Shown here: piece by piece, positions 1 to 34,843 of the stretch
Numbering within the stretch: position 1 is the first letter of the stretch
How the letters are laid out: each line of letters starts with the position of its first letter
Origin: a virus
Length of the DNA stretch: 34,843 nucleotides
Reading direction: 5' to 3' (one strand)
IMG/VR virus record: IMGVR_UViG_3300037104_000290
Coordinates: 1-34,843 of that record
Made by a program: the position numbers and the translations under genes
Notes under the pieces: generated by a model
What the model saw: the letters and a program-made list of their open reading frames with translations, nothing else
The model's database searches: none
Told to the model about the DNA's origin: nothing

Positions 1-127
1 ATATCCTGCGGATCTGCTCACCGACGGGCTCCGCGATGCGTACTCATTCGGTCTCGGGATTGCTCTGCCGACTGGACCGAGAGAGTTGGGATGGGCGATG
101 GATGCCCACGAGGGGAGGACGAGGTGA
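1..127. repeat. Terminal direct repeat: nt 1-127 are identical to nt 34717-34843 (circular closure overlap). A genuine internal copy lies at 30402-30528
   Basis: Read directly: both window ends read atatcctgcggatctgctcacc...cacgaggggaggacgaggtga. The segment is the 3' end of the repeat-protein gene 33947-34843. Confidence 0.9.
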
Positions 128-14489: not shown

Positions 14490-14750
14490 ATGAGAAAGAT
14501 CGTTGAAGAGGTTGGGAATGAAGGCTTGGAAAAGTTCCTTGGAGAAGTGGTAACGCTTTTCTGCGCGAACTACATTTATACCGGGATGCTATCGAGGGTA
14601 AACGATACTTGCGTTCTACTCACCGACCCATCGATTGTCTATGAGACAGGAGCGTTTTCCAATAAAGGATGGAAGGACGCACAGAAATTACCCTCAAAGG
14701 AGTGGTACGTCCAGACCTTAGCCATTGAGAGCTTTGGAAAGATGAAATGA
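14490..14750 (+). CDS. Small globular phage protein (family pattern FCANYIYTG.L..VND.CV.L.D.SIVYETG), function unknown
   Basis: ORF 14490-14750 with a strong promoter and SD. Distant pattern similarity to the 27135-27410 product. Confidence 0.65.
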   Translation: MRKIVEEVGNEGLEKFLGEVVTLFCANYIYTGMLSRVNDTCVLLTDPSIVYETGAFSNKGWKDAQKLPSKEWYVQTLAIESFGKMK

Positions 14751-15001
14751 CCATCAGAACTATTCATAGTCGATATCGACGCCGGAGCGGGAGAGGGAGC
14801 GGGAGCGGGAGCCGGAGCTGGAGCGGGAGCTGGAGCTGGAGCTGGAGCCGGAGCGGGAGCTGGAGCGGGAGCTGGAGCGGGAGCCGGAGCTGGAGCGGGA
14901 GCGGGAGCCGGAGCTGGAACGGGAGCTGGAGCGGGAGCCGGAGCTGGAGCGGGAGCGGGAGCCGGAGCTGGAGCGGGAGCTGGAGCGGGAGCCGGATATG
15001 A
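14747..15001 (+). CDS. Dipeptide-repeat protein (Ser-[Gly/Arg/Trp])n
   Basis: ORF 14747-15001 with ATGA overlaps at both ends. The alternative reading is (Pro-Ala)n on the minus strand, ORF 14639-15043. Confidence 0.45.
   Translation: MTIRTIHSRYRRRSGRGSGSGSRSWSGSWSWSWSRSGSWSGSWSGSRSWSGSGSRSWNGSWSGSRSWSGSGSRSWSGSWSGSRI
14783..14994. repeat. About 35 tandem copies of the hexamer NGGAGC (N = G/T/C) with a 54-nt higher-order duplication
   Basis: Units counted directly. Only position 1 varies, apart from two single substitutions (gggaga, tggaac). Units 18-26 and 27-35 repeat the order C T G G C T G T G. Confidence 0.95.
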
Positions 15002-15315: not shown

Positions 15316-15319
15316 AAGA

Positions 15320-21559: not shown

Positions 21560-21606
21560 ACATATATAAGGTATGAGTCAAGGCGGTTTGGATTACATTT
21601 TAACTA

Positions 21607-21679: not shown

Positions 21680-21704
21680 CCGTAAACTACCATGCCAGAT
21701 CAAG

Positions 21705-22301: not shown

Positions 22302-22321
22302 GCCAAACCTCCTACCGCAAG

Positions 22322-22438
22322 CTAATGATGCGTTGAATCCCCTATTGCCATTACCAACAGAAACCAACCTATGCCAAGGAACGCGCACTCGGCTGCGAAC
22401 GTCATCAGCCACGCCATGAACTTGTCGAAATCAGTCAT
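22322..22438 (-). CDS. Possible 38-aa membrane peptide (MTDFDKFMAWLMTFAAECAFLGIGWFLLVMAIGDSTHH)
   Basis: Hand-translated. TAATG junction with the upstream minigene and a hydrophobic core. Confidence 0.3.
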   Translation of the reverse strand: MTDFDKFMAWLMTFAAECAFLGIGWFLLVMAIGDSTHH

Positions 22439-22611
22439 TACGTCACCCCCCTCGACCTGGTGCTCATGGGGAAGAGCACGGCCCCTCCCCCAGCGATCAC
22501 CCTAACCATTTTGTGACCGTCCTTCTGACAGTAGATGTCGGGGTCGTCCTTAATGCTATGATCTTCCTCCCGTACACGTTTGCAGACAGGGCACCGATAG
22601 AGATATGTCAA
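22438..22611 (-). CDS. 57-aa FmdB-like zinc-ribbon protein
   Basis: Hand-translated from TTG 22611 (TTGA overlap). YLYRCPVCKRV...IYCQKDGHKMVRV matches the FmdB-type Zn-ribbon pattern. Confidence 0.45.
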   Translation of the reverse strand: MTYLYRCPVCKRVREEDHSIKDDPDIYCQKDGHKMVRVIAGGGAVLFPMSTRSRGVT

Positions 22612-22949
22612 TTAACACTCCCCCCAGGAAGAACAAGCCCCGACATAGCCTCTTGCGCCTTCTGGATCAAGTCGGGCAGACCGCAATCAGTGATCATCAG
22701 AATCGAAGTCTTAGGCACCCTGATTTGTTTGGGCTGGAACTCGCTCCCCGATACCTTGATCATCTGGATATCAGCAATCCCCGTCTTTCTGCTCGATACG
22801 ATGATCACAAGCGTCTTGTCACCGTCGAATACCCACGAATCGCTATCCTCCCGTGCTGTCTCACTGTAGAAAAACTGACCAGTGAGTAGCTGGTAGATAC
22901 AGGGAATCCCCGCAGTCGCGTTCTTGCCATTCTTGTCAACCAAATGCAC
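22608..22949 (-). CDS. Hypothetical 113-aa protein
   Basis: GTG start at 22949, preceded by GGAAGGAGGA. Confidence 0.55.
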   Translation of the reverse strand: MHLVDKNGKNATAGIPCIYQLLTGQFFYSETAREDSDSWVFDGDKTLVIIVSSRKTGIADIQMIKVSGSEFQPKQIRVPKTSILMITDCGLPDLIQKAQEAMSGLVLPGGSVN

Positions 22950-22994
22950 TTAATCCTCCTTCCGCGTGATTACCTATGCGCGGCCCAGGAAATA

Positions 22995-23156
22995 CTATAT
23001 CTCTTTCAATGCTTTCTCTATCAATTCATCCATACCATGTCGACGAAGATATTTGAAGACCCGAACCATACAATCGTAGCACCATCCATCAGAAAACATG
23101 CCAGAGTTATTGACTTCAATCTTCCCGCATCCAAAGCAATGGAATTGTCCTTTCAT
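22995..23156 (-). CDS. 53-aa zinc-ribbon protein (CFGCG...CYDC)
   Basis: Hand-translated: MKGQFHCFGCGKIEVNNSGMFSDGWCYDCMVRVFKYLRRHGMDELIEKALKEI. ATGA overlap with the upstream stop. Confidence 0.5.
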   Translation of the reverse strand: MKGQFHCFGCGKIEVNNSGMFSDGWCYDCMVRVFKYLRRHGMDELIEKALKEI

Positions 23157-23443
23157 TTCCTTTTGAGCGGCTTTTTGAAATCAGGGTGCGGAGTTACATC
23201 CTCAATACCCAACCGCTTCCGCTGTCTCCTAATATCTTCTGCATTGGGTGCTGTGCACCATGTACAGTTGCAATCCCTGCACGGCATGGCTTGTGTCATC
23301 TGGTAATGCCGAGACAGTCGATGTCCACATTTGCACAGCATGGGAGCGGAGCGTGGGTCTTCTCGCTTCGATGCTTCTTGCATCTGCTCTTTCTCCATGT
23401 CGCGCATCCATGCAAGATCGCGTTTATCCGCCCAGCCCTTCAT
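23153..23443 (-). CDS. Cys-rich 96-aa protein, probable Zn-binding
   Basis: ORF 23153-23443. Contains CKCGH...H...CRDCNCTWC. Confidence 0.5.
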   Translation of the reverse strand: MKGWADKRDLAWMRDMEKEQMQEASKREDPRSAPMLCKCGHRLSRHYQMTQAMPCRDCNCTWCTAPNAEDIRRQRKRLGIEDVTPHPDFKKPLKRK

Positions 23444-23646
23444 CGCTCGATATTCTCCGGTACAGGTTCAGGCGGATCGATAGGACAGCCTACAATATCA
23501 AAAGGCTTATTAGCCTCGAATATCATGGCATCCGCTATATGATAGCTTGTCTTTGCAAGATCTTCACCCTTTACCATGCCTGGACTGGCAAGCAGTCCCT
23601 GCAAAGCAGCCATGGCGAATAGATCGCGCCGAGTCACTTCTTCCAT
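23440..23646 (-). CDS. Small phage protein with RDLFAMAALQGLLA motif
   Basis: ORF 23440-23700. Start probably ATG 23646, after the upstream minigene stop; earlier in-frame starts are possible. Confidence 0.5.
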   Translation of the reverse strand: MEEVTRRDLFAMAALQGLLASPGMVKGEDLAKTSYHIADAMIFEANKPFDIVGCPIDPPEPVPENIER

Positions 23647-23656
23647 TTCGTACACC

Positions 23657-23797
23657 TCATCCTCCCTTCTCAGCATTGCACTCTCTGACCTTTTTAGCAA
23701 GCGTTAGAAGCGCCTGCTCCCGGCTATTAGCCTTGTACCCATGCTCTACTTGTAGTTCGATAGTCTCGGCGATACACAACGCCTCGGATGGTGTCAT
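23657..23797 (-). CDS. 46-aa hypothetical protein
   Basis: Hand-translated: MTPSEALCIAETIELQVEHGYKANSREQALLTLAKKVRECNAEKGG. ATGA overlap with the terminase stop. Confidence 0.35.
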   Translation of the reverse strand: MTPSEALCIAETIELQVEHGYKANSREQALLTLAKKVRECNAEKGG

Positions 23798-25422
23798 CCT
23801 TGCCCTCCTGTAAATAGTTGTATTGGCCTCATGGCGTAGTGTACCGCCCGCATCTGATCAGGATGATACGTTTCGTCGTCTATCTCCCGCGTGAGTTGAT
23901 CCTGCTCATTGCGCTTGTAGATTGTCTTTAGACTCTCGTCCCACAGCGGGCCATCCTTACGACACTTAAAGACACCGCGCCTCGTCTCGTCCTGAAGCAG
24001 CTCGAAAGCCATCTCTTTTTCTTGATTGTAGGCTGCCTGTATCGGTAAGTGATAGGTATTATTGAGATCGAAGGGAGTGATAGCGTTGCCACCAGTGTCG
24101 GCATGGATATCAAAGTTTTTATTGACCACCTTAGAGAATATAGGCGATGTGTTGACATAGTCTATTCCAGCCCTACAGGCTTGTGCAATCTCTTCCGTTC
24201 CCTTACGATTCGCCTTCCACTCGTAGACAAGAAATCGTTGTGGTAAAGATATTGAGTAGCATACCACAGCGAGCGCGTCGGCGTCCTCAAACCCAAAATC
24301 CAAGCCGCTCGAAAAACGCACATCTGTAACAGGCTGTGAATCAATCCAAGCCTTAAGTTGAGCATCGTCAAAGCTATTCTCCTCCGTAAGTCTAAGCACA
24401 AGCGCATCATCATCATATGCTATCCTTCCTAGATACTCACGGATATAGAGCGGGTCAGTCTCTTTAAGGTTTTTCTCGGCGCGTATCATTTCTAGCTGGT
24501 GCTCGTGATCCGGGATGAAGGGGTTGTGCGTTAGGTTCCAATTGAGGCGCAGCGCGTCTGAGTACACCGGCGTTCCGTCGGGCTTCACACCCAGAAACAC
24601 CTCCTCCCAGTATGTACCCCGAACGCGCGGCCCCGTACCTCCCATAGCAAGCTGCCCCGCCTTGTCGATCAGCGTCGGCAGGATAATGGATTCCACGAGA
24701 TATCGAAGTTGCTTCTGCGACTGGCACTCATCTATGCCCACGCGATCCCAATACGGCCCGCGGTTCTTCTCCCGCTCGTCTTGGGTCGCGTTGCCGCCGA
24801 ACTTCATTATCCCATCATCTGCTGTGGTGATCGTTCCCTCAACGCGGTTGTGGCCTTTGATCTTGATGCCGAGGTCTTCCAACTTATCCAGCATCGGAGT
24901 CCAGAGCAAGCCCATAGCCGTGGTAGATGTGAGCCCGATATAGAGACAGCGTGCATCGCCGTGGTCAATGAACTCGTCAGCAAACCACTGGCGCAGGCCT
25001 ACCGTCTTCGCCCCGCGTCGCCCTGCCATGAGGAACAAATACTTCGACATGGTGAACAGGATCTGCCGCTGCATGTCTGTTGACTCTTTGTGCAATCGGT
25101 AGTGCAGAAAAGCGATCTCGCGCTTCTCCCCACGGGTCAGCCATTCGTCTATTTCGTCAAGTACATTGTCTTTGAATAGCCGCTCAGCAAGAAACCGCGA
25201 TTGCCAAGTGTTCTGCTTCTTGGCTCCCATCTTGAACTTGCTTAGGTAGTCGCGTAGGAATTGCTCCCCCTCACTCCCAGAGAGTAGGCCCATGAAGGAT
25301 TGAAGGGCGCGCTGTTTGTAGCCTGTACCGGCCGGACGCCCCGGACCCCCCGCTTTGCCTTCTTTGAACTGTGTATCCTTTTTTGTCCTTTTAATTTCTA
25401 CCGTGTCTGTACGTTTCGCCAT
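23794..25422 (-). CDS. terL: Terminase large subunit
   Basis: 542 aa. Walker A-like MAGRRGAKT, Walker B VGIDECQ, nuclease-domain GLDFGFEDADALAVV. Confidence 0.85.
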   Translation of the reverse strand: MAKRTDTVEIKRTKKDTQFKEGKAGGPGRPAGTGYKQRALQSFMGLLSGSEGEQFLRDYLSKFKMGAKKQNTWQSRFLAERLFKDNVLDEIDEWLTRGEKREIAFLHYRLHKESTDMQRQILFTMSKYLFLMAGRRGAKTVGLRQWFADEFIDHGDARCLYIGLTSTTAMGLLWTPMLDKLEDLGIKIKGHNRVEGTITTADDGIMKFGGNATQDEREKNRGPYWDRVGIDECQSQKQLRYLVESIILPTLIDKAGQLAMGGTGPRVRGTYWEEVFLGVKPDGTPVYSDALRLNWNLTHNPFIPDHEHQLEMIRAEKNLKETDPLYIREYLGRIAYDDDALVLRLTEENSFDDAQLKAWIDSQPVTDVRFSSGLDFGFEDADALAVVCYSISLPQRFLVYEWKANRKGTEEIAQACRAGIDYVNTSPIFSKVVNKNFDIHADTGGNAITPFDLNNTYHLPIQAAYNQEKEMAFELLQDETRRGVFKCRKDGPLWDESLKTIYKRNEQDQLTREIDDETYHPDQMRAVHYAMRPIQLFTGGQG

Positions 25423-25790
25423 TACTTCAATAGCTCCGGGTTTTCGTATATGTTGCCTACAATTTCACACTCAGGCCATGAACATATGAAATAGTTGCCT
25501 CCAAGTAGAAAAGAAGGCCAGTCGGCATCACTACGCCATTCAACGGGGCAGATTGCCGTATCTTTTCCCTTTCCAATTCTTACCAGATCCCCCTCGTATA
25601 TCTCGCGGCCTTTCTTGTCCTTGAGGCCGGTATACTGCATTAGAACGTGATCGGTTTCCCCTAACCAGTGCGTATCATGTCCATTTTGAACCGAATCGAC
25701 GGTCTGATTGATAATGGCTTCGATAGTCAGATCAAAAAACATTCTACCGCATTCTTTGTCCCACGCCCGAAACTTGATCTCTCTCATCAT
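25422..25790 (-). CDS. YopX family protein
   Basis: IKFRAWDK...LMQYTGLKDKKGREIYEGDLV...EIVGNIYENPELL is the classic YopX signature. Confidence 0.85.
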   Translation of the reverse strand: MMREIKFRAWDKECGRMFFDLTIEAIINQTVDSVQNGHDTHWLGETDHVLMQYTGLKDKKGREIYEGDLVRIGKGKDTAICPVEWRSDADWPSFLLGGNYFICSWPECEIVGNIYENPELLK

Positions 25791-25844
25791 TTCACCCTAT
25801 TCCACATGACCAGCATCTTTCCCATAACCTTGCTCAGAGTGAGT

Positions 25845-26489
25845 TTATTTCCTCTTCTTCGGTGCTGGTTTATCTCCACTATCTGACGCTTTGTCTCTGC
25901 TACCACATCGATATCCAAGCTCACCATGACCGCTTTTTTTGCCACTTCTTAAGTATTTCCAGATGTAAAATAACTCTTTGCCGTGGTCATAGATCCATTT
26001 TCGTCCAACAAATGATTCAATAGCAAGGATACTTGAACGATACGTTGCGCGGCGTTTAAGGATGAGGAGCACTCTTGCTCCAAGAGGATCCGAGCTGATT
26101 CCATCGAAATAAGGCCCTGATTGTAAAGATTTGTTTGCCGTTTCTCTTTTGCTCGACGGTTCCGGTATCCCTTCAAGCGACACGATTGATTTCTGGAATA
26201 CCGCTTTCGGGCCTTTGTGATCCGAGAGCTCATGGACAACTTCGATGTTAAGGACTTTCGCAAAGCTATATATTCGATAGGACGGATTGCGATATCGGGA
26301 GAGCACACGTGAAATGATGATTTGTACCGTATCGTCAAGTTCTCCGATTGGCAACTCATGCCTAGAAGCATAAGCCTTCGCCAGTCTCTCCGTGATATGT
26401 CGGCACTCCGCGTATAGACCCGACATCGCCCCGCGTTCGCCTGAAAAATATCTACGTTGGAACTCATGGCACAACCCTTCATTTATCAC
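25845..26489 (-). CDS. Sigma-70 region-2/region-4-like protein (late regulator) or small terminase
   Basis: LYAECRHITERLAKAYASRHELPIGELDDTVQIIISRVLSRY..P.Y.IYSFAKVLNIEVVHEL resembles ECF sigma region 2. First gene of the late block. GTG start with no SD. Confidence 0.35.
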   Translation of the reverse strand: MINEGLCHEFQRRYFSGERGAMSGLYAECRHITERLAKAYASRHELPIGELDDTVQIIISRVLSRYRNPSYRIYSFAKVLNIEVVHELSDHKGPKAVFQKSIVSLEGIPEPSSKRETANKSLQSGPYFDGISSDPLGARVLLILKRRATYRSSILAIESFVGRKWIYDHGKELFYIWKYLRSGKKSGHGELGYRCGSRDKASDSGDKPAPKKRK

Positions 26490-26497
26490 CGATCATC

Positions 26498-26525
26498 ACT
26501 ATACCATCTCCCTGGGAGTTGTCAA
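26498..26525 (-). promoter_or_regulatory. Sigma70-type promoter abutting the first late gene (near-leaderless)
   Basis: Minus strand: TTGACA (26525-26520), 16-nt spacer, TATAGT (26503-26498). GTG start at 26489, only 8 nt after the -10. Confidence 0.55.
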
Positions 26526-26625
26526 CATCAGCGGGGACGTATGCGCGGGGCCGCTCGCGCCTTAACACTCACAACCCCTTGGTACCATCCCCGCGTAATC
26601 TACTGTATCACATCACGGGGGAATG

Positions 26626-26674
26626 TCAAACAAAAACGAGAAAGGCGGAGTCTCCCTGGCTCGGGATTCCGCCT
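26626..26674 (-). terminator. Intrinsic terminator in the late-operon leader
   Basis: Minus strand: AGGCGGA-A-TCCC-GAGCCA-GGGA-GAC-TCCGCCT hairpin followed by TTCTCGTTTTTGTTTG. Confidence 0.6.
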
Positions 26675-26715
26675 CCCTTCCTAGCCCTCCCTCTTGGGGA
26701 CTATATGATAATCCA

Positions 26716-26744
26716 TATATAGCAAAACAATAGAAAGATTACAA
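26716..26744 (-). promoter_or_regulatory. Sigma70-type promoter driving a short terminated leader RNA
   Basis: Minus strand: TTGTAA (26744-26739), 17-nt spacer, TATATA (26721-26716). The terminator hairpin starts about 35 nt downstream of the predicted start. Confidence 0.5.
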
Positions 26745-26957
26745 GAGGTTGGTGAGAACACAGTTATCCCTCAAGCCGGATGTATTGAGTGGGGGCGTGT
26801 CTGTGGGCTTTTAGTGGCCCCCAGCCCCACCCATAGAAAGACCGACGGGAAGCGAAACACAAGACTAGTGGCGTCGTGTGAGTACCACTCCCGCATAGAT
26901 CGGCGAGCGTGTCAATACTATTAAGACAATATCACCTGATAGCAAAAATGATATCTA

Positions 26958-26986
26958 TTGACAAGTATGGAAAAGTGATATAAAAT
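26958..26986 (+). promoter_or_regulatory. Early rightward sigma70 promoter
   Basis: TTGACA (26958-26963), 17-nt spacer, TAAAAT (26981-26986). Alternative -10 is TG-extended TATAAA. Flanked by TGATA[GT] repeats. Confidence 0.65.
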
Positions 26987-26993
26987 CGACATC

Positions 26994-27053
26994 ATGAACA
27001 AGAAAAAGAAGAAAGCGGTTAGGAAGGCATTCCTGGTGCGAATCCACCCGTGA
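26994..27053 (+). pseudogene. 19-codon remnant of an RHH gene (or leader peptide): MNKKKKKAVRKAFLVRIHP*
   Basis: Aligns with the N-terminus of 31040-31249 (MGKKKLTKPARRAILIRIHPW...). The promoter upstream is also similar (tattgacaag). Confidence 0.45.
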
Positions 27054-27134
27054 CGGATTGTCGGAAACGTGCCATACTCTGATCATCAAGACGGATGCGG
27101 GGTAGTGAGGTACCGATCCACGGAGGTATAGGGC

Positions 27135-27410
27135 ATGGAAAAGAAGACGGTTTTGACAGGATTTGCTATCGTCGTCTGTGATCGGGGTTTTGTGTATGTC
27201 GGCCAGATGACCCATGATGGAGAGTTCGCCGTGCTCGAAGGAGCCCGCAATATTCGCTACTGGGGAACGACAAACGGGCTCGGGGAGCTGGCGCTCAATG
27301 GTCCGACGAGCAAAACGAAGCTGGATGCCTGTGGGACTGTTCGCGTCCCGGCGCATGCGGTCATCAACATCCTCGATACGGAGGCAAGAAAATGGCCGTC
27401 CTCGAAGTAA
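27135..27410 (+). CDS. Small conserved phage protein (pattern VVC..G.VYVG......VLEGARNIRYWG...GLGELA..GP), function unknown
   Basis: ORF 27135-27410 with GGAGG SD. I recognise the pattern as a recurrent small phage family. Confidence 0.7.
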   Translation: MEKKTVLTGFAIVVCDRGFVYVGQMTHDGEFAVLEGARNIRYWGTTNGLGELALNGPTSKTKLDACGTVRVPAHAVINILDTEARKWPSSK

Positions 27411-27694
27411 CGCTCGACGGTTCCGGTTACGGTTACGGTTACGGTTACGGTTACGGTTCCGGTGACGGTGACGGTTACGGTTACGGTTCCGGTGACGGTT
27501 ACGGTTACGGTGACGGTTACGGTTCCGGTTCCGGTTACGGTTACGGTTACGGTGACGGTTCCGGTTACGGTTACGGTTACGGTTACGGTTCCGGTTACGG
27601 TTACGGTTCCGGTTACGGTTCCGGTGACGGTTACGGTTCCGGTGACGGTAACGGTTACGGTTCCGGTTACAGTGACGGTGACGGTGACGGGTAA
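27392..27694 (+). CDS. Dipeptide-repeat protein (Gly-[Tyr/Ser/Asp/Asn])n
   Basis: ORF 27392-27694. GGAGG at 27380-27384, 7 nt before the ATG. Overlaps the upstream gene by 19 nt. Confidence 0.6.
   Translation: MAVLEVTLDGSGYGYGYGYGYGSGDGDGYGYGSGDGYGYGDGYGSGSGYGYGYGDGSGYGYGYGYGSGYGYGSGYGSGDGYGSGDGNGYGSGYSDGDGDG
27419..27691. repeat. About 45 tandem hexamers GGT-[T/G/A][A/C]C
   Basis: Read directly: ggttac, ggttcc, ggtgac, one ggtaac, one agtgac. Confidence 0.95.
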
Positions 27695-27699
27695 AAGGA

Positions 27700-27725
27700 A
27701 CGGCCGGGGTGCGACTCCCGGCCGT
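27700..27725 (+). other. Stable 9-bp GC hairpin after the GY-repeat gene, with no U-tract
   Basis: ACGGCCGGG-gtgcgact-CCCGGCCGT. Confidence 0.5.
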
Positions 27726-27819
27726 GGATTGGGGGCGCCGCGTTGCGGCACAGGAGGAATGTGGCAAGGTCGATACTACACGCCTGCCACGCAGTTGTCA
27801 ACACAAGGAGAGGGCACAA

Positions 27820-28059
27820 ATGATCGACAAAAAGCGCATAGCGAACCTGATCGTTGAGATGGGTGAGGGTGACTTCTTCGACTCACTTGTCAGGGTGGTC
27901 AAAGACCGGGAAATCACGGAGTGGGTGGATGGCGGAGAGAACTTCGACGACAAGGCTTACAAAGAGTTTACCGATGCCACCACATGCGCAGGATTGCTCG
28001 CATATCGAATGCGAGAGGGTAGCAAGGAATCGGCGAAGAGAAAGGACGCAACAGAATGA
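27820..28059 (+). CDS. Hypothetical 79-aa acidic protein
   Basis: ATG 27820 within ORF 27709-28059, preceded by AAGGAGAGGG. Confidence 0.55.
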   Translation: MIDKKRIANLIVEMGEGDFFDSLVRVVKDREITEWVDGGENFDDKAYKEFTDATTCAGLLAYRMREGSKESAKRKDATE

Positions 28060-28928
28060 AAGCAAAATCCACAAAGCGCGGGCAGCCGAAGGGGACGGCG
28101 GTAATGAAGAAGGAGTCTTCTCTGCTAATACCGGCCGAGGGCAAGATCGATTTCCAGACTCTTGTGGCCCGGGCGATCGACAAGAGCCTGCCCGTCGAGA
28201 CTATGGAGCGGCTCCTCGCGATGGTAGAGAAGCAGAAAGCGGCATGGGCGAAGGATCAATTCTTCGCAGCCCTTTCGCGGTTTCAAAATGCCTGTCCACC
28301 CGTCAAAAAGACTCATGATGTCTATGATCGCAAAGGTGCCTATCGTTATAGCTACGCGGCGCTTGAGGATATTGTGGAGACCGTAAAGACTCCATTGGAG
28401 CGAAACGGTTTGAGCTACACGATCAAGACCGAGCAGAACAAGGACGAGGTTGCGGCAATCTGCATTGCTCACCACGTGGATGGACACGAGGAGCAGACTC
28501 GTTTTGCCGTCCCCATCGATCATGAGGCATACATGAACGCGGCGCAGAAGGTAGCAAGCGCTCTTACCTACGCGAAACGCTACGCATTCAATAATGCCTT
28601 CGGGATCATGACGGCGGAAGATGATGACGACGCTCAAGGCACAGGGGCTCCAAAGAAGCAGCATACAGCCCGCAAAGAATACGCCGATGAGCCAGTCGAC
28701 ATCGAGTATGAGGTTGGGGGAGGCAAGGGGAGCAAGTCAGATATCCCCGTCGCGTCTTCCGCCGACTGCCAGGCCCTCTACGATGCAATCCTGCCTAAGT
28801 TGGAAACCATGGCGCCGAATGTGGCGAACCGCTTCCGCGACACGGCGGATCGGAACCTTGAACAGAAAAACTGCGATGCTCTCAAGGCATTACTGGATAC
28901 CGTGAATCGAATAGAGGCAAAGGCATGA
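28056..28928 (+). CDS. erf: ERF-family single-strand annealing protein
   Basis: YRYSYAALEDIVETVKTPLERNGL...HHVDGHEE...QKVASALTYAKRYAFNNAFGIMTAEDDDDA matches the ERF pattern. ATGA overlap. Confidence 0.75.
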   Translation: MKAKSTKRGQPKGTAVMKKESSLLIPAEGKIDFQTLVARAIDKSLPVETMERLLAMVEKQKAAWAKDQFFAALSRFQNACPPVKKTHDVYDRKGAYRYSYAALEDIVETVKTPLERNGLSYTIKTEQNKDEVAAICIAHHVDGHEEQTRFAVPIDHEAYMNAAQKVASALTYAKRYAFNNAFGIMTAEDDDDAQGTGAPKKQHTARKEYADEPVDIEYEVGGGKGSKSDIPVASSADCQALYDAILPKLETMAPNVANRFRDTADRNLEQKNCDALKALLDTVNRIEAKA

Positions 28929-29584
28929 TCTACACGCCAAAGGAAGGCCGATCGGTCTACAAGACAAAGGACAATGTCCGCGTCCCCTCGTGCACCACCA
29001 TCACCGACGTAATCCGAAAGCCCGCCCTTGAGCGCTGGAACAACACCATGGGCCTCAAGGGCATCGACACGGTCAAGTACGTGGACGAGCTGGCGCAGGC
29101 GGGAACGCTGGCGCACTACTTTGTCGAATGCGACATCCAGGAGATGGAGCGCGACCCCGCCTTTGTGGCAAAGTTCGACGACGTAGACAGGGCCCGCGCA
29201 GAGACCTCCCTCGTCAAGTACCACGAATGGCGCGTTCAGCACATCATCAAGGTTATCCTCGTGGAGCGGGAACTCGTCAGCGAAGTCTACCGGTATGGCG
29301 GCAAGCTGGACTTGCTCCTGGAAATCGACGGCATGCTGACACTGGTCGACATCAAGACGAGTAAGGCGATATACGACGATCAGTACACGCAGGTCGCCGG
29401 ATATTGGATTCTCGCGCACGAACTCGGCTTCGACATACAGAAGGCTGGTATTCTGCGGATCGGGCGCAATCCTGACGAGGGATTCGAGTATCGCGAGATG
29501 GAGCACGTCGAACTACAGACCCGGCGCTTTCTCGCGTGCCGGGAGTTGTATGAGGTGAGCGGCCTTTTGAAAAAAGCTTCATGA
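28925..29584 (+). CDS. PD-(D/E)XK (RecB/Cas4-like) nuclease
   Basis: GGKLDLLLEIDG.LTLVDIKTSK...QYTQVAGY, i.e. D...D/E-x-K plus a QxxxY motif. Partner position next to the annealase. Confidence 0.7.
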   Translation: MIYTPKEGRSVYKTKDNVRVPSCTTITDVIRKPALERWNNTMGLKGIDTVKYVDELAQAGTLAHYFVECDIQEMERDPAFVAKFDDVDRARAETSLVKYHEWRVQHIIKVILVERELVSEVYRYGGKLDLLLEIDGMLTLVDIKTSKAIYDDQYTQVAGYWILAHELGFDIQKAGILRIGRNPDEGFEYREMEHVELQTRRFLACRELYEVSGLLKKAS

Positions 29585-29676
29585 ATCACGACGAAAGGAG
29601 CGGGTAGTCGTATGACGTTCCATCTCCAGAGGACTGGCGACAGCCGCATGATGGTCTACGAGGGGAAGGAGAAATC

Positions 29677-30528
29677 ATGACAGGCTACAAGGTATTCACG
29701 TACGACAGGCGCCCGCCGGTGCAGGGTGGTGATCCCATCTGGGACGGGGCGATGCCCTACGACCTGCCTACCGTTAAGCTGGATCGCGGCGCTGCGGAGT
29801 GCGCGGCAGGTTGGCATTTCTGCTTGTCTCTACCAATCGCTCTGCGCATTGTAGGGCTGTGGCCCGATGGTCGACCGTCGTGCGTGGCCGCAGTTGAGGC
29901 TGATGACGTGGTGGAGCGAGAGGAGAAATGTCGCGCGGCTACCCTACACCTCACGCGTTGGCTGGACGAGGCGGAGATCAGAGACGGTGTGCTGGAGATG
30001 TCGGCTCCGTTTGGCGCGCACGCAGAGACGATGACCTCCGAGCAGATGTCGTGGCGCACAGCTCTGGCTCGGCCTCAACACGACCGTGCTAACGTAGAGG
30101 CAGGACTACATATAGCGATGGCGACGCGGGGATTGGACTGGCAACTCAGAGAGTTTCCAACCGCCTGGGACGCCAGGGCCGCCAAGGACACCTGGGACGC
30201 CAGGGACGCCAGGGCCGCCAGGGACGCCAGGGCCTCCTGGTCCGCCTGGGACGCCTGGGACGCCAGGGCCGCCTGGTCCGCCAGGGCCGCCTGGGACGCC
30301 AGGGCCGCCTGGGCCGCCTGGGCCGCCAAGGACACCTGGGACGCCAGGGCCGCCTGGGCCGCCATGGTGGTCTATTACGTTGCTCTAATGGGATGGATCA
30401 AATATCCTGCGGATCTGCTCACCGACGGGCTCCGCGATGCGTACTCATTCGGTCTCGGGATTGCTCTGCCGACTGGACCGAGAGAGTTGGGATGGGCGAT
30501 GGATGCCCACGAGGGGAGGACGAGGTGA
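29677..30528 (+). CDS. Repeat protein paralog A: YKVF...GWHFC N-terminal domain plus (Ala-[Trp/Arg/Lys]-[Asp/Ala/Ser])n array plus conserved tail
   Basis: ORF 29677-30528. AAGGAGA SD. The N-terminal pattern GYKVF...C..GWHFC is a recurrent phage domain of unknown function. Confidence 0.75.
   Translation: MTGYKVFTYDRRPPVQGGDPIWDGAMPYDLPTVKLDRGAAECAAGWHFCLSLPIALRIVGLWPDGRPSCVAAVEADDVVEREEKCRAATLHLTRWLDEAEIRDGVLEMSAPFGAHAETMTSEQMSWRTALARPQHDRANVEAGLHIAMATRGLDWQLREFPTAWDARAAKDTWDARDARAARDARASWSAWDAWDARAAWSARAAWDARAAWAAWAAKDTWDARAAWAAMVVYYVALMGWIKYPADLLTDGLRDAYSFGLGIALPTGPRELGWAMDAHEGRTR
30163..30363. repeat. About 22 tandem 9-nt units GCC-NGG-G[A/C]C (variants ACC, TCC, AAG)
   Basis: Read directly, in frame with the CDS. 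Confidence 0.9.
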
Positions 30529-30731
30529 CGTGGCATCTCCTCGGAAGCATGTCCGGCCGAACTGAGCATGTGCTCAAGTACGGGTGTGATCAATACCCGG
30601 GACTCATGAAAGAAATCCTGACCAGCATTCGAAACGGTCACCCTACCGTCCGAGTTGAGACGAGCTACTACTGGGAGGCATCGAAAGAGATATACGATAT
30701 GGTAGATGCTGCTCTCGAGGCCAGGAAGTGA
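30525..30731 (+). CDS. Hypothetical 68-aa protein
   Basis: GTG 30525 in a GTGA overlap with the paralog A stop, using the same GGAGGA SD module that precedes the methyltransferase at 124. Confidence 0.45.
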   Translation: MTWHLLGSMSGRTEHVLKYGCDQYPGLMKEILTSIRNGHPTVRVETSYYWEASKEIYDMVDAALEARK

Positions 30732-30807
30732 TGGAAGGGACATCTCGAATACGAATATCGATCTTTTCACTTGAGTTCTGTAGATCAAACCTGAGAAGGA
30801 AGGGGTT

Positions 30808-30839
30808 GGAAACCAAGAGGTGGTTTCCTCTTTTCTTTC
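30808..30839 (+). terminator. Rho-independent terminator
   Basis: GGAAACCA-agagg-TGGTTTCC followed by TCTTTTCTTTC. Confidence 0.75.
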
Positions 30840-30987
30840 GGCCCTTTGTTGTACGTCCCTATCTCTCTATCGGGGGAAGTACAATATATCCGGCATCGAG
30901 GGAAAAATGTCAATACTTGCAAAACGATTCTGAATCGATTTCACTTGCTTTCCAAAAGATATCAAGAAAAATGTGTTAAAAAAGGTA

Positions 30988-31014
30988 TTGACAAGATGCA
31001 CAAAATGATAGCAT
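30988..31014 (+). promoter_or_regulatory. Second early promoter, similar to the one at 26958
   Basis: TTGACA (30988-30993), then TG-extended TAGCAT (31009-31014) with a short 15-nt spacer. Shares tattgacaag and TGATAGCA with the 26958 promoter region. Confidence 0.45.
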
Positions 31015-31039
31015 GATTTGTTGGAAGGGGGAGGCGTGG

Positions 31040-31249
31040 ATGGGCAAGAAAAAACTAACGAAACCCGCAAGGAGAGCCATTCTGATTCGCATTCATCCCT
31101 GGATGTATACCGCACTCAAGGCTGAGGCGAAGGCGTCCATGATACCGACAAGCGTCAATCGTTTGGTGGTGGAGGCACTTCTGGACAAGTACCGCAACAT
31201 TTCCGTTTCTCTGGGAGCAAAGGTAAAGGGACATGAGCTTCCAAGATGA
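31040..31249 (+). CDS. Ribbon-helix-helix DNA-binding protein
   Basis: ATG 31040 within ORF 31013-31249 (GGGGGAGG SD). ILIRIHPWMYTALKAEAKASMIPTSVNRLVVEALL fits the RHH pattern. Confidence 0.6.
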   Translation: MGKKKLTKPARRAILIRIHPWMYTALKAEAKASMIPTSVNRLVVEALLDKYRNISVSLGAKVKGHELPR

Positions 31250-31490
31250 CATTCTCCGACGAGCAATCAAGACAATCTCAGAGGATTTGTTCCCGGAGAC
31301 TCTGGAGAAGCTACGCAAAAAGGCGCGAGATGAACATCTGACCTTACAGCAGCAACTCGACATGATAACCGAAGAGGCAATGCGCGGATACGTCGAGCCT
31401 GATTCCTTGAAAGGTCGCAAAGAGCCGGAGAAGATTATTCCTCCGCCTTCGGTCAGGGACGGCAAGTCCGCTGCGGCTGGAGATACGTAG
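31233..31490 (+). CDS. Small RHH-like protein, paralog of 2321-2593
   Basis: ORF 31233-31490. About 80% identity at protein and DNA level to 2321-2593. Confidence 0.7.
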   Translation: MSFQDDILRRAIKTISEDLFPETLEKLRKKARDEHLTLQQQLDMITEEAMRGYVEPDSLKGRKEPEKIIPPPSVRDGKSAAAGDT

Positions 31491-31837
31491 AATGATGTCT
31501 CTCATGCGCGGGGTCACGATGTGTCGGTCAGTCAAGGCGGGTTCACTCCCGCCATCCCCACAACCCGGGCCTCACAATCATTGCCCCAGGGTGCGCGCGC
31601 GTTTGGTGCGAGGTTGCAAGCGGGTGGAAAGCCCGCATTTCATGCCCCCGACCGCAACGCGAAAAATCATCGCGTGGTGCGCGACCGGAGAGCGACGAGT
31701 GTTTGCAACGTGACACCGTTCAACTCGGCGCGGGGGCTCGAGGGGGAAGTGGTACCAACGGCGCGAGTAAAGAGGAAAAAAAGACGAGCGTCTGCGCATA
31801 CGCTTCCCCGACTTTTTCAAGGGAGAAAGGAGAGACA
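31491..31837 (+). ncRNA. GC-rich non-coding stretch with multiple hairpins: candidate structured RNA or replication origin
   Basis: No credible ORF; all frames give Arg/Pro-rich nonsense. Hairpins: GGCGGG-ttcact-CCCGCC (31536-31553), GCGGG-tggaaag-CCCGC (31620-31636), ACGCGA-aaaatca-TCGCGT (31657-31675). Possible long-range GCCCCCG/CGGGGGC pairing, and AGCGT-ctgcgcat-ACGCT followed by a T-run. Confidence 0.3.
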
Positions 31838-32419
31838 ATGCAGTACGGAAGATTTTTCGAGATTGGCAAGGGCATCCTTTGCGACCAGCTCCGTTTTCTG
31901 GCGGTCGCCGTCGCGGAAGATATGATGCGGTACTTCATGCAGTACATCCGCGTCGAACAGGCTGAGGAGGGATTGCGCGCTGTCGCGTCGGACGGAAGAC
32001 GGCTACACCTCGTTACCAAACTTGCCCCGAAAGCCGCAATGGAGGGGATCGTGCCCGGAGCCTATGCCGTGATGAAGAAGACAGGTCGGTCGATCTGGCT
32101 CGTGAAGATCGAGGAAGGCGCCGGCGACTTTCCCGACTACAAACGCATTTTCAAAGAGGAGCCCCCAACATTCGAGGGCAAATGGCGAGGGATGCAGAAG
32201 AACACCGCGTCACTGTTCGAGTTGTGCTATTCCTTCCCGGAACCGACAGCGCTGAATCTGCGGTACCTGGAGGACATCGGCGCCGAGGAGTGGACGGTGA
32301 AATGGTGGGCTCCCAGCTACGGCGTTCTTTTCGAGGCCAAGGATCGACAGGCCGTCATCATGCCGATCGATCTAAAGCAGGAAAACTTCGTCCGGCAGGA
32401 AAATAAGGAATCGGCATAA
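31838..32419 (+). CDS. Half-size DnaN (beta sliding clamp)-like protein, 193 aa
   Basis: ATG 31838 (AGGAGA SD) within ORF 31703-32419. LRAVASDGRRLHLV resembles the clamp ATDGHRLA motif, GDFPDYKRIF resembles GRFPDY, and ALNLRYLEDIG...AVIMPI resembles the clamp C-terminus. Confidence 0.55.
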   Translation: MQYGRFFEIGKGILCDQLRFLAVAVAEDMMRYFMQYIRVEQAEEGLRAVASDGRRLHLVTKLAPKAAMEGIVPGAYAVMKKTGRSIWLVKIEEGAGDFPDYKRIFKEEPPTFEGKWRGMQKNTASLFELCYSFPEPTALNLRYLEDIGAEEWTVKWWAPSYGVLFEAKDRQAVIMPIDLKQENFVRQENKESA

Positions 32420-32460
32420 GCCTTTCGTCTCATAGGCAAGGAAGGGCGAGGAGGCGAAAG

Positions 32461-33027
32461 ATGAGGATAATGGATGCGATGCTGGCGGGGGCGTGCAGGG
32501 AGCAGCGGGAGCGCTTTGCAGCCGAATGGCCTGATGGAGCCGAGGTTACGGAGGCTAACGTGCTGCGGGCGTTCGTCCTTGGGTTGGACGTAGACTGGCT
32601 CTTGAGCCATGTCCTGCCGGCCCCGCTGTGGGCGGAGTACCAGCGGCAGGAGGACCCGCTGTTGGCGGAGTACGAGCGGCAGAGGGCCCCGCTGTTGGCG
32701 GAGTACCAGCGGCAGAGGGCCCCGCTGTGGGCGGAGTACCGGTGGCAGGAGGACCCGCTGTTGGCGGAGTACGAGCGGCAGAGGGCCCCGCTGTTGGCGG
32801 AGTACCAGCGGCAGAGGGCCCCGCTGTTGGCGGAGTACCAGCGGCAGGAGGCCCCGCTGTTGGCGGAGTACCAGCGGCAGAGGGCCCCGCTGTGGGTGGA
32901 GTACCAGCGGCAGGAGGCCCAGCTGTTGGAGGAGTACCAGCGGCAGAGGGCCCCGCTGTGGGCGGAGTACCAGCGGCAGAGGGCCCCGCTGATCGTAGCG
33001 ATGCTGGAGCGAGGAGGCGAGAGATGA
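32461..33027 (+). CDS. Repeat protein: ~55-aa N-terminal domain plus 11 copies of an 11-residue unit AEYQRQRAPL[L/W]
   Basis: ORF 32461-33027 with GAGGAGG SD. ATGA overlap with the next gene. Confidence 0.7.
   Translation: MRIMDAMLAGACREQRERFAAEWPDGAEVTEANVLRAFVLGLDVDWLLSHVLPAPLWAEYQRQEDPLLAEYERQRAPLLAEYQRQRAPLWAEYRWQEDPLLAEYERQRAPLLAEYQRQRAPLLAEYQRQEAPLLAEYQRQRAPLWVEYQRQEAQLLEEYQRQRAPLWAEYQRQRAPLIVAMLERGGER
32622..32992. repeat. About 11 tandem 33-nt units
   Basis: Read directly. The region is open in all three plus frames and one minus frame. Confidence 0.9.
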
Positions 33028-33212
33028 CAAGACCGAAAGAGCTGATCCGCGCTGGGCTGTCCCTGCGGACAATCTACCGCCGAGCCGGCGCGCTGCGGGA
33101 GGCGCTGGTGAAGGTGAGGAGAATTGTCGAATCCGAAGCCTCAGTAAACGTACAGGTTAAAGTCGCCAAGATTGTTGGCGCCGCCCTTGCGGCCCACAAA
33201 GGAGATAGGTAG
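33024..33212 (+). CDS. 62-aa basic protein, possible helix-turn-helix
   Basis: ATG 33024 (ATGA overlap). MTRPKELIRAGLSLRTIYRRAGALREAL. The next ATG directly follows its stop. Confidence 0.45.
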   Translation: MTRPKELIRAGLSLRTIYRRAGALREALVKVRRIVESEASVNVQVKVAKIVGAALAAHKGDR

Positions 33213-33950
33213 ATGTGTGACTTCTTTTCGTTTTGCTCCTACAACGAGACGTATTTGTATTCGGAATGGGAAGATCGAAAACGGGACTTTGAGCGCGCCG
33301 ACAGTCACACTGCGATCCTCATGCGAGCCGGTATCGATGTGCGCAAGCAGGAGAACTGGCAGAAGTACGAGTACAACTTACTGACAAAGGCATTCTTCGT
33401 GGACACGCCCGATTTGGGGGGAAATCACGATGTCGCCCGTCGTTGGGTCGAGCGTTTGGACTGGTCTACCATCGTTCCGGACCTGGCGATCAAGCCTATC
33501 GTCAACCCGTTTGAGTTGCAACCTCCGTCTATTACGGACGAGCATGTAAGATTGCTCGCGGCGTGGAACAGTGTGGGGGCCAGTGTGAGGGACAGTATGG
33601 GGGCCAGTGTGAGGGACAGTGTGGGGGCCAGTGTGTGGAACAGTGTGGGGGACAGTGTGTGGAACAGTATGGGGGTCAGTGTGAGGGACAGTGTGGGGGC
33701 CAGTGTGTGGAACAGTGTGGGGGACAGTGTGTGGAACAGTGTGGGGGCCAGTGTGAGGGCATACATATCGTCGTTTTTCACGATCAAATATAGTCACGAT
33801 CCAACCTCGGCTGTGCTCCTGTGGGATCAGGGGATCGTCCCGTCCTTTGACGGTACCACGTGGAGGCTACACGGAGGGAGAGACGCTAAGGTGCTGTACA
33901 CGATATCCGCAAAGGATCTTGCGGCCCACGAGGGGAAGGAGAAATCATGA
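33213..33950 (+). CDS. Repeat protein: MCDFFSF...SH N-terminal domain plus 16 tetrapeptide units Ser-Val-[Gly/Arg/Trp]-[Ala/Asp/Asn] plus C-terminal domain
   Basis: ORF 33213-33950 with AAGGAGA SD. The flanking-domain patterns (MCDF.S, LW..G.VPSFDG..WRL) recur in phage/bacterial hypothetical proteins I recall. Confidence 0.75.
   Translation: MCDFFSFCSYNETYLYSEWEDRKRDFERADSHTAILMRAGIDVRKQENWQKYEYNLLTKAFFVDTPDLGGNHDVARRWVERLDWSTIVPDLAIKPIVNPFELQPPSITDEHVRLLAAWNSVGASVRDSMGASVRDSVGASVWNSVGDSVWNSMGVSVRDSVGASVWNSVGDSVWNSVGASVRAYISSFFTIKYSHDPTSAVLLWDQGIVPSFDGTTWRLHGGRDAKVLYTISAKDLAAHEGKEKS
33570..33761. repeat. 16 tandem 12-nt units AGT-GTG-NGG-[G/A][A/C/T]C
   Basis: Each unit read directly. The NGG codon is GGG, AGG or TGG. 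Confidence 0.95.
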
Positions 33951-34843
33951 CAGGCTACAAGGTATTCACGTACGACAGGCGCCCGCCGGTGCAGGGTGGT
34001 GATCCCATCTGGGACGGGGCGATGCCCTACGACCTGCCTACCGTTAAGCTGGATCGCGGCGCTGCGGAGTGCGCGGCAGGTTGGCATTTCTGCTTGTCTC
34101 TACCAATCGCTCTGCGCATTGTAGGGCTGTGGCCCGATGGTCGACCGTCGCGCGTGGCCGCAGTTGAGGCTGATGACGTGGTGGAGCGAGAGGAGAAATG
34201 TCGCGCGGCTACCCTACACCTCACGCGTTGGCTGGACGAGGCCGAGATCCGCGACGGCGTGCTGGAGATGTCGGCTCCATTTGGAGCGCACGCAGAGACG
34301 ATGACCTCCGAGCAGATGTCGTGGCGCACAGCTCTGGCTCGGCCTCAACACGACCGTGCTAACGTAGAGGCAGGACTACGTATAGCGCTGGCAACGCGGG
34401 GATTGGACTGGCAACTCAGAGAGTTTCTGACCGCCTGGGACGCCAGGGCCGCCAGGGCCGCCTGGGCCGCCTGGGACGCCAGGGACGCCTGGGACGCCTG
34501 GGACGCCTGGGACGCCAGGGCCGCCTGGGACGCCGGGGCCGCCGGGGACGCCTGGGACGCCTGGGACGCCAGGGCCGCCAGGGCCGCCAGGGCCGCCTGG
34601 GACGCCAGGGCCGCCGGGGCCGCCAGGGACGCCTGGGACGCCTGGGACGCCTGGGACGCCGGGGCCGCCTGGGCCGCCATGACTGTGTGCTATACATCCC
34701 TGATGGGATGGATCAAATATCCTGCGGATCTGCTCACCGACGGGCTCCGCGATGCGTACTCATTCGGTCTCGGGATTGCTCTGCCGACTGGACCGAGAGA
34801 GTTGGGATGGGCGATGGATGCCCACGAGGGGAGGACGAGGTGA
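33947..34843 (+). CDS. Repeat protein paralog B (longer array). Its stop overlaps the GTG start of the methyltransferase across the circular junction
   Basis: ORF 33947-34843. The N-terminal 162 aa differ from paralog A at only a handful of positions. Confidence 0.75.
   Translation: MTGYKVFTYDRRPPVQGGDPIWDGAMPYDLPTVKLDRGAAECAAGWHFCLSLPIALRIVGLWPDGRPSRVAAVEADDVVEREEKCRAATLHLTRWLDEAEIRDGVLEMSAPFGAHAETMTSEQMSWRTALARPQHDRANVEAGLRIALATRGLDWQLREFLTAWDARAARAAWAAWDARDAWDAWDAWDARAAWDAGAAGDAWDAWDARAARAARAAWDARAAGAARDAWDAWDAWDAGAAWAAMTVCYTSLMGWIKYPADLLTDGLRDAYSFGLGIALPTGPRELGWAMDAHEGRTR
34433..34678. repeat. About 27 tandem 9-nt units GCC-NGG-G[A/C]C
   Basis: Read directly. The NGG codon is TGG, AGG or GGG. 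Confidence 0.9.

Follow-up and report, generated by a model that had tools for sequence, protein, structure and literature searches.

In the 34,843-nt viral record IMGVR_UViG_3300037104_000290 of IMG/VR, whose entire length is called the window here, six genes designated A to F contain long tandem arrays of very short repeats (Table 1). Six in-frame arrays had been predicted there from the letters of the DNA alone (hereafter the original prediction), and all six were found by Tandem Repeats Finder (TRF), each with a period divisible by three, the units then being printed in the frame of the enclosing open reading frame (ORF). We conclude that A to F are phage accessory proteins with a hypervariable array of very short repeats, which in A, B, C and D stands beside a conserved globular domain.

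Table 1. Repeat genes, their arrays and adjoining features of the window
Feature	Position	Strand	Period (nt)	Description
Gene A	29677..30528	+		283 aa; divergent DUF7666-like N-domain, 23-unit 9-nt array, conserved C-tail; paralog of B
Array A	TRF 30161-30364; in frame 30160..30366	+	9	G[A/C]C-GCC-[T/A]GG, giving D/A - A - W/R; few K, S and T variants
Gene B	33947..34843	+		298 aa; paralog of A; 28-unit array; stop codon is the final triplet of the contig
Array B	TRF 34431-34679; in frame 34430..34681	+	9/18	G[A/C]C-GCC-[T/A/G]GG, giving D/A - A - W/R/G
Gene C	32461..33027	+		188 aa; N-domain of ~55 aa (GAC..Q..F..WPDG), eleven 33-nt units, short hydrophobic tail
Array C	TRF 32619-32991; in frame 32617..32991	+	33	89% matches; APL[L/W]AEYQRQ[R/E]; toggles TTG/TGG and AGG-GCC/GAG-GAC
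Gene D	33213..33950	+		245 aa; MCxFFSF-type N-domain, 17-unit 12-nt array, conserved C-tail
Array D	TRF 33563-33759; in frame 33561..33764	+	12/24/72	GTG-[T/A/G]GG-[GAC/GCC/AAC]-AGT, giving V - W/R/G - D/A/N - S; 72-nt higher-order period
Gene D C-tail motif				AYISSFF...LWxxGxVPSFDGxxWRLH
Gene E	14747..15001	+		84 aa; short basic N-terminus, then 36 R/W/G-S units
Array E	TRF 14784-14996; in frame 14783-14998	+	6/12/18	[C/T/G]GG-AGC, giving R/W/G - S
Gene F	27392..27694	+		100 aa; 46 Y/S/D/N-G units; shares 19 nt with the end of the DUF6948 gene
Array F	TRF 27417-27690	+	6	[TAC/TCC/GAC/AAC]-GGT, giving Y/S/D/N - G
DUF6948 gene	27135..27410	+		Directly upstream of F; first gene past the promoter-like site 26958-26986
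Terminal overlap	1..127	+		Is the 3' end of the A/B gene, the island continuing past it to the methyltransferase gene (91-909)

The original prediction had read the arrays as one scheme, in which a variable NGG codon alternates with constant codons for small residues. The patterns of A, B, C, D and E were reproduced exactly in the frame of their ORFs, but F contains no NGG codon, and there the logic is the same with a Tyr codon rather than a Trp codon at its centre. The constancy claimed for the scaffold holds within each array of the window, where synonymous variants of the scaffold codons are almost absent and the variation sits at position 1 of NGG and position 2 of G[A/C]C. The repeats are imperfect, with 78-90% matches by TRF.

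Behind these genes stand large families, as foreseen for three of the N-terminal domains, which searches for homologs of A/B, D and C place in recurrent hypothetical families. At least 388 homologs were retrieved with gene B as the query, and all those inspected are built of N-domain, array and C-tail. An exhaustive search with the N-domain of B gave 206 clusters at 50% identity, nearly all of 230-320 aa, with an N-domain of ~165 residues, an ([A/D]-A-[W/R/G])n array and a conserved tail of ~55 residues (ALxVxYAAxxGW...LLTxGLRDAYxxGLxIAxPTGPxELGWAM). Family D is larger (3,209 homologs, the size of >3,200 referring to clusters at 90% identity) and combines the MCxFFSF N-domain with an (S-V-[W/R/G]-[D/A/N])n array and a conserved tail, while family C has 139 homologs, in which an N-domain of ~55 residues is followed by (APLWAEYERQR)n. 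For C, precomputed matches to PF27195 exist on the homologs P0243, P0248 and P0327; the scan of gene C itself against our Pfam copy returned none. The position of the array is fixed, occurring at the same site in essentially all examined members of families A and D, whose flanks are 40-60% identical. Family A is nearly absent from 185,579 species-representative genomes, where only two short contigs of metagenome-assembled genomes carry it, and its known locations are viral contigs and, on a metagenomic contig of 219 kb, a prophage-like region with an integrase gene at its end. In the alignment of family D several residues are invariant or near-invariant, namely Cys2 after the initiator Met, R22, the DSH motif (D30-S31-H32), E53, D64, K94, Y184 and W217, and these could form a catalytic or metal site in the core. 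As the original prediction had held, no function is described for these proteins: PHROGs, NCBIfam and PADLOC gave no match for A, B, D, E or F, and our literature search found no paper naming DUF7666, DUF6948, the peptide motifs or these families.

The claim of one shared codon grammar could be examined in arrays taken from 110 genes of families A and D at related loci, comprising 1,081 D and 534 A units, and it holds there as well as in E-, F- and C-like arrays of other phages. The variable codon is NGG in 90.6% of the D units (TGG 416, AGG 321, GGG 230, CGG 12) and in 85.6% of the A units, and in 82% of the family D units the codon after NGG begins with G. The scaffold codons vary between phages, Ser being written with all six of its codons, Val with all four, Ala with GCC, GCG or GCT and Asp with GAC or GAT; within one array, a single codon per scaffold residue averages 79-99% of that residue's codons. 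Different scaffold codons between arrays and uniform ones within them show purifying selection on the peptide together with homogenisation by concerted evolution. Units of one array indeed resemble each other more than they do units of orthologous arrays, and variation is limited to a few codon positions per unit (NGG in 86-91% of 1,615 units), as is expected of concerted evolution. The variable position behaves otherwise. Arg is encoded by AGG or CGG in 97-98% of its array codons versus 27-36% in the flanks of the same genes (in family D, 427/435 versus 159/443, p = 5e-101), and Gly is GGG in 330/371 array codons versus 148/661 in the flanks. The third base of the dominant codon was switched in 67/163 array-by-residue cases for Ser and Val, versus 5/110 for Arg and Gly (p = 9e-13). 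AGG and CGG are rarely mixed, one Arg codon averaging 93-98% of the Arg codons of an array, which points to inherited unit types and not to site-directed mutation. Of the seven sense neighbours of the Trp codon, few are used often, Cys, Leu and Ser codons being seldom seen (TGT 15 and TTG 5, versus AGG 321 and GGG 230).

The remaining array types follow the same rule. E-like arrays in loci L082 and L087 have TCG and not AGC for Ser, yet retain TGG, CGG and GGG. F-like arrays elsewhere use four Gly codons among phages, their variable codons being nearly all TAC, GAC, AAC, TCC or TTC with few TAT. In C-type units the variable Leu is TTG versus CTG or CTT for the adjacent scaffold Leu, and a C-type chain in L119 reads TGG-CGG-CTG.

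How the arrays change can be followed in the paralogs A and B. Their duplication begins 24 nt upstream of the ATG, and the 5' flanks differ at only 14/507 positions (~2.8%), with four amino-acid replacements. The C-flanks show 13 differences just past the array, and then the final 141 nt are identical. Between these flanks the arrays, of 23 and 28 units, are fully rearranged in order and contain private unit types. The comparison was extended to gene copies with flanks 95-100% identical. Among the pairs with 100% identical flanks, 9/13, each from different samples, have identical arrays and 4/13 differ only by a clean block of whole units (48 residues for B versus L116, 56 for D versus L117, 42 for L001 versus L003 and 32 for L044 versus L048), and point toggles were absent from these identical-flank pairs. 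The gain and loss of units put forward by the original prediction is thus the sole difference between such copies, albeit one that array collapse in short-read assembly could mimic. The block indels fit slippage or unequal recombination. In L116, an independent ENA contig, a B-like gene is joined to the region downstream of A; the join is recombinant or else a chimera that arose via the identical 141-nt stretch. Given the shared 3' end and the L116 join, the segments around the A and B copies may lie in another order or be part of a tandem amplification.

The N-domain of A and B can be related to a named family. Both fall under the gathering threshold of PF24703 (17.0 and 19.7 versus 27 bits, E 9e-3 and 1e-3, residues 34-100). 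When the model of the B core was compared with BFVD by Foldseek, however, the best matches were DUF7666 proteins (E 6.5e-5 to 1.6e-4, probability 1.0, 111-138 columns), the top ones from Hyperionvirus, Pseudomonas phage PspYZU05 and a Podoviridae sp., and all the DUF7666 matches spanned E 6.5e-5 to 1e-3; the homolog P0060 has a precomputed PF24703 match. In family A/B a C-tail following the array completes the divergent DUF7666-like core, so that the array is an insertion splitting it. Further BFVD matches of the B core are a phage protein with the name "Pentapeptide" and ankyrin-repeat proteins of giant viruses, and in other viruses DUF7666 cores are fused to pentapeptide repeats (Rheinheimera phage) or to ankyrin repeats, so that the DUF7666-type core seems to have carried repeat arrays repeatedly. 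The DUF7666 proteins of phages and giant viruses thus resemble A and B in the N-domain match and in their repeat fusions, but A and B score under the gathering threshold and have the array inserted, with a C-tail finishing the core. The assignment says nothing on mechanism, the family being without known function. Apart from this, F-like GYG/GSG/GDG arrays are fused to C-terminal globular regions in other phages, as in L064 (1-575) and L114, and in the latter (~8370-9130) a GYG-type array precedes a C-terminal Cys...His motif that resembles the DUF7666 hallmark by eye only.

Structures of B and D were predicted with AlphaFold2 on 70- and 76-sequence alignments. In both models (predicted local distance difference test, pLDDT, 86 for B and 85 for D; predicted template modelling score, pTM, 0.79 for each) the N-domain and C-tail pack as a single core with pLDDT mostly >90, and the arrays are modelled as long helices (residues 163-196 and 204-252 in B, 123-186 in D). 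The predicted arms are alpha-helical, at modest confidence, and not the beta-solenoids that had been among the suggested folds, and both helix interruptions in each model coincide with Gly-containing units. Per residue, the arrays have a net charge near zero (-0.02 to -0.04). Nothing significant came from searching the sequences of the PDB with profiles. A collagen-like or polyproline II Gly-X-Y structure for the three-residue arrays was rejected, since the invariant residue is Ala (GCC), Gly is minor and AlphaFold2 gives an alpha-helix.

That the grammar results from protein-level selection acting together with concerted evolution, with a Trp or Tyr codon pinned, has good support. Slippage or unequal recombination between near-identical units probably adds, removes and reshuffles whole units, and selection on the protein keeps the scaffold, be it Ala-Ala, Ser-Val, Ser or Gly. 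An aromatic residue and its one-mutation neighbours (TGG with AGG/CGG and GGG; TAC with Asp, Asn, Ser and Phe) alternate at a single exposed position of each unit, and the next is kept as Asp, Ala or Asn. In the mechanism that we envisage for NGG, because Trp has a single codon, a third-base change could not sweep an array that needs Trp, TGA, TGC and TGT being stop or Cys, and GG would thereby be pinned; recombination of an AGA unit with a TGG unit would likewise create a TGA stop. Only those one-step alternatives that selection tolerates, Arg and Gly, would persist. The array would then extend from the core as a long arm of antiparallel helices that, in the AlphaFold2 models, break at Gly-containing units, and its surface studded with W, R and D would bind a host or phage macromolecule early in infection, changes in unit number and order retuning the length and contacts of the arm. 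We therefore tentatively suggest, as a possibility somewhat short of an even chance, that the arrays serve as adjustable interaction arms in early accessory proteins. A more ambitious proposal, to which we give rather little credence, is an enzyme-free system of minimal-code diversity, in which the arms of early proteins, written in few hot-spot residues (W/R/G with D/A/N, or Y/S/D/N) whose codons concerted evolution keeps one mutation apart, would through unit shuffling and single-base toggles quickly retarget binders against host defences or takeover targets; such a system would be, by analogy, the tandem-repeat counterpart of diversity-generating retroelements (DGRs) and of hypervariable repeats in NOD-like receptors (NLRs) and transcription activator-like effectors (TALEs).

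Several observations weigh against an interaction arm. The helical arm is itself a weak prediction, the pLDDT of the arrays being only 45-83, and periods of 2, 3 and 4 residues give an alpha-helix no fixed amphipathic face. Gly units are not enriched at array centres, for which reason a fixed hairpin turn was rejected, and no defined hairpin geometry or pattern was seen. Foldseek found no structural homolog of either model in the PDB (best E ~1.5). The order of W, R and G is random, successive units being independent (observed/expected 0.85-1.12), which also eliminates a higher-order W/R/G pattern. The differences in unit number all come from short-read assemblies, where the collapse of an array looks alike; for fungal NLR repeats, inconsistent published sequences of the repeat domain hindered analysis, and long reads reconstruct the arrays accurately (PMC12222747). 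Lastly, long arrays are inessential to the core, because very short ones exist naturally, with only 2-4 units in P0235 and in L111, which lies in a 198-kb contig.

These short members, the random order without positional pattern, the 9/13 identical-flank pairs that share identical arrays and the lack of co-occurrence of the families (see below) would suit arrays that are tolerated, slippage-prone linkers, the core doing the work and the length drifting neutrally. We nevertheless consider such neutrality rather unlikely, since the array lies at the same site in essentially all of the hundreds to thousands of members examined, scaffold residues survive synonymous codon replacement, even between the two Ser codon families, and only Arg and Gly are common among the neighbours of Trp, those for Cys, Leu and Ser being rare. 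Two further functions, condensate formation and nucleic-acid mimicry, had been named in the original prediction and remain speculation. If the arrays were low-complexity regions of stickers (aromatic residues and Arg) and spacers (Gly, Ser and Ala), self-association or condensates would follow, with unit number tuning the valency. W, R or Y with small residues are typical of FUS-like low-complexity domains, E and F consist almost entirely of such units without a globular domain, and the net charge is near zero; AlphaFold2, however, makes helices on a folded core of the A/B and D arrays, and Ala-rich and Ser-Val scaffolds are atypical as disordered spacers, so that we regard this as unlikely. 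It is a little harder still to favour proteins that mimic or bind nucleic acids against restriction or DNA-targeting defences, after the manner of pentapeptide-repeat or Ocr-type proteins, with an arm that imitates or grips DNA. DNA methyltransferases are the commonest neighbours (18/113 loci), followed by helicases, SSB and Erf, a methyltransferase lies directly after B and another 1.5 kb downstream in L115, and both the DUF7666-pentapeptide fusion of the Rheinheimera phage and the pentapeptide-repeat genes near six loci point the same way. Yet the arrays are near neutral and not strongly acidic, neither PADLOC nor structural comparison matched a known mimic, and the methyltransferase neighbourhood, at 16%, is a weak signal that any early-region gene would typically give.

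Very unlikely is an action of the repeats at the DNA or RNA level, through G-quadruplexes, CCWGG methylation, iterons or ribosome pausing at Shine-Dalgarno-like stretches or rare AGG codons. In favour, the arrays of A, B and E contain on their coding strand all 32 canonical G-quadruplex motifs of the window (four tracts of G3+ with loops <=7 nt), with none outside these arrays or on the - strand, GCC-[T/A]GG places a CCWGG every 9 nt in A and B, and NGG precedes a G-initial codon in the 82% of family D units given above. The quadruplex motifs follow from NGG joined to a G-initial codon. The peptide, however, is conserved while CCWGG and the exact DNA units are not (GCC, GCG or GCT for Ala, six codons for Ser), and the arrays are always in frame with conserved flanking domains. 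A purpose as CCWGG (Dcm/EcoRII) sites was rejected because other family-A arrays put GCG or GCT before NGG, and G-quadruplexes because the motifs lie outside the minimum-free-energy structures that ViennaRNA predicts for the RNAs of A, B and D. High stability is predicted for the RNA hairpins, with -156 kcal/mol over 252 nt for the B array. The least credible explanation is that targeted mutagenesis writes the variable bases, be it DGR-like adenine mutagenesis of an AGG/GAC template or the work of another enzyme. A-to-N changes in a (GAC-GCC-AGG)n template would yield exactly D/A/G/V and R/W/G, and V and G variants do occur at position 1 in some family-A arrays. No reverse transcriptase, however, was found among the scanned ORFs of >=150 aa (Pfam, PHROGs), nor a non-tandem template copy of any array; Arg is AGG or CGG in each array and almost never both, one codon dominating, and copies with identical flanks show block indels and never point toggles, on which grounds a DGR target was rejected.

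Returning to an adjustable arm, the closest known kind of protein is that with hypervariable repeats of high internal conservation, such as the WD40 repeats of fungal NLRs (PMC12222747) and TALE or leucine-rich repeat (LRR) proteins (PMC10392669). The HNWD/NLR WD40 repeats of fungi (PMC12222747), the TALE and LRR repeats (PMC10392669) and the phage arrays alike consist of near-identical DNA units under concerted evolution, vary at one or two codons per unit and are poorly reconstructed from short reads; the known repeats change in unit number and order by unequal recombination, as the phage arrays may. The hypervariable residues Y/D/H/N of Dictyostelium LRRs, which by the genetic code are NAY codons, also resemble array F (PMC10392669). 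The units of these known repeats, however, are folded and 23-42 residues long and form a solenoid or propeller, whereas the phage units have 2, 3, 4 or 11 residues and are predicted to make a helical arm within a globular core. The phage repeats also belong to early genes, their variable set is that of one-step neighbours of Trp or Tyr codons, and their binding role and diversifying selection are putative. Ultra-short units, insertion into a core, location in early phage genes and the one-step codon alphabet thus set the phage arrays apart.

The amino acid tandem repeats (aaTRs) of Borgs (PMC9879509) share with the phage arrays the in-frame arrangement, periods divisible by three, an extrachromosomal element as carrier, fast evolution and similar residues in related proteins. 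Borg repeats are perfect, recent, independently formed, A-rich and mostly disordered (PMC9879509), unlike the phage arrays, which are imperfect, G-rich, inherited family-wide at a fixed site and predicted to be helical. A Borg-type aaTR was thus rejected on the 78-90% matches, the site fixed across families with flanks 40-60% identical and the predicted helix. Pentapeptide-repeat proteins of the Qnr/MfpA type also have short tandem units, are small and occur in the same kind of phage regions, but their units, A(D/N)LXX, form a beta-helix, and the phage units are of other sequence and modelled as helices by AlphaFold2; with units of 2, 3, 4 or 11 residues and no Pfam match, membership in PF00805 was discarded. 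An analogy, and only that, is offered by antibodies. Synthetic libraries rich in Tyr/Ser/Asp/Gly or Trp/Arg build binding surfaces from a minimal code, and the D-segment codons of bovine ultralong CDR (complementarity-determining region) H3 loops are one mutation from Cys. A small hot-spot alphabet (W, R, Y, D, S and G) and codons one mutation from alternatives are common to antibodies and phage arrays.

If the arms are adjustable interaction surfaces, large unannotated phage families become candidates for fast-evolving proteins of host interaction or counter-defence, and the codon rule, an aromatic codon with its one-step neighbours in a synonymously drifting scaffold, would be a signature for finding such proteins in any genome. 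The arrays also illustrate, in nature and cleanly, how the amino acids that a repeat explores are shaped jointly by the genetic code and by concerted evolution. Even if they are neutral they carry a practical warning, as such genes break short-read assemblies and confuse gene callers.

The original prediction had further argued for a common function from the presence of so many repeat genes in one phage, and this was not sustained. Of the 113 related loci, taken with +/-10 kb, L005 alone outside the window combines families A and D, family A or D is found near 0/4 of the C-family loci, and homology between families A and D was rejected by profile comparison (hhalign probability <1%). Multi-copy paralogous loci do occur (L096, L099, L016-18, L031/32, L044/48 and L119), and the related loci hold 186 arrays, 175/186 of them with a period divisible by three, the window topping the count with six. 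Other in-frame arrays nearby are of pentapeptide, Ala-rich AAAW/AAAY/AADA, V[S/Y]G[D/N]A[R/Q/W] hexapeptide and [D/Y/R/N]CS kinds; L036, L038, L057, L060, L085, L099, L087, L050, L113 and L045 contain such extra kinds, and several of them near A or D genes show the same one-step codon toggling. Besides the methyltransferases and pentapeptide-repeat genes mentioned above, recurrent neighbours encode a SNF2-like helicase, a small nuclease, SSB, Erf and DnaB. Judging from gene content, the neighbourhood is a generic early DNA-metabolism setting, with modules of recombination, replication and modification, among small ORFs.

This setting is also that of the window, where the genes of the + strand follow in the order DUF6948, F, Erf, PD-(D/E)XK exonuclease, A, a faint sliding-clamp-like ORF, C, D and B. 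The bases 1-127 recur unchanged at 34717-34843 and again at 30402-30528, a terminal overlap of k-mer type, so that the island of repeats reaches the end of the contig and carries on into positions 1-2600, where B is directly followed by the DNA methyltransferase and then NinG. The DUF6948 ORF matches PF22253 with 32.6 bits versus a cutoff of 27 (E 9e-8, 75/85 profile positions), and its end is overlapped in another frame by F, which has no globular part. All the repeat genes had been placed in one early operon with good Shine-Dalgarno sites and translational coupling, and this survives only in part. Only E has a weak site, those of A, B, C, D and F being good. ATGA overlaps couple D to B and join the ORFs of the cassette containing E, but gaps of 185 nt and 92 nt separate C from D and the exonuclease gene from A. 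A gene-poor gap of 300 nt contains a terminator-like hairpin (30808-30836) and, after it, a promoter-like site (30988-31017, TTGACA-18-CATGAT), which indicates that the early region of the + strand forms two transcription units, of which A is the final gene of the first. Gene E lies outside it, as the middle ORF of a three-ORF + strand cassette (14490-15315; 86, 84 and 105 aa) within the - strand virion module; this cassette is moron-like, set between structural genes of the - strand, and its other two ORFs have no family match.

Some minor features of the window complete the picture. Promoter-like sites diverge at 26498-26629 (-) and 26958-26986 (+). The ORF at 31703-32419 may encode a phage sliding-clamp-like protein, as it faintly matches TIGR00663, the DNA polymerase III beta subunit, at E 6e-5 and far under the cutoff. 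A second early segment is duplicated, 2328-2574 versus 31237-31483 (247 nt at 81% identity), and its small ORFs (2252-2593 and 31233-31490) match no family. The ten largest ORFs of the - strand (2633-26489, the presumed virion module) had no Pfam or PHROG match, among them 23794-25422, 19452-21314, 10181-12976 and 5953-8451, and GenBank phage records gave no match to the A protein or to the DNA of positions 15000-34843; the phage looks like a member of a poorly sampled lineage. The - strand module also contains a tRNA-Gln gene (anticodon TTG) at 21607-21679, the ORF at 15392-16789 gave a faint major-capsid hint in the PDB (E 0.03), and the ORF at 4795-5526 matched a tail-fibre PHROG.

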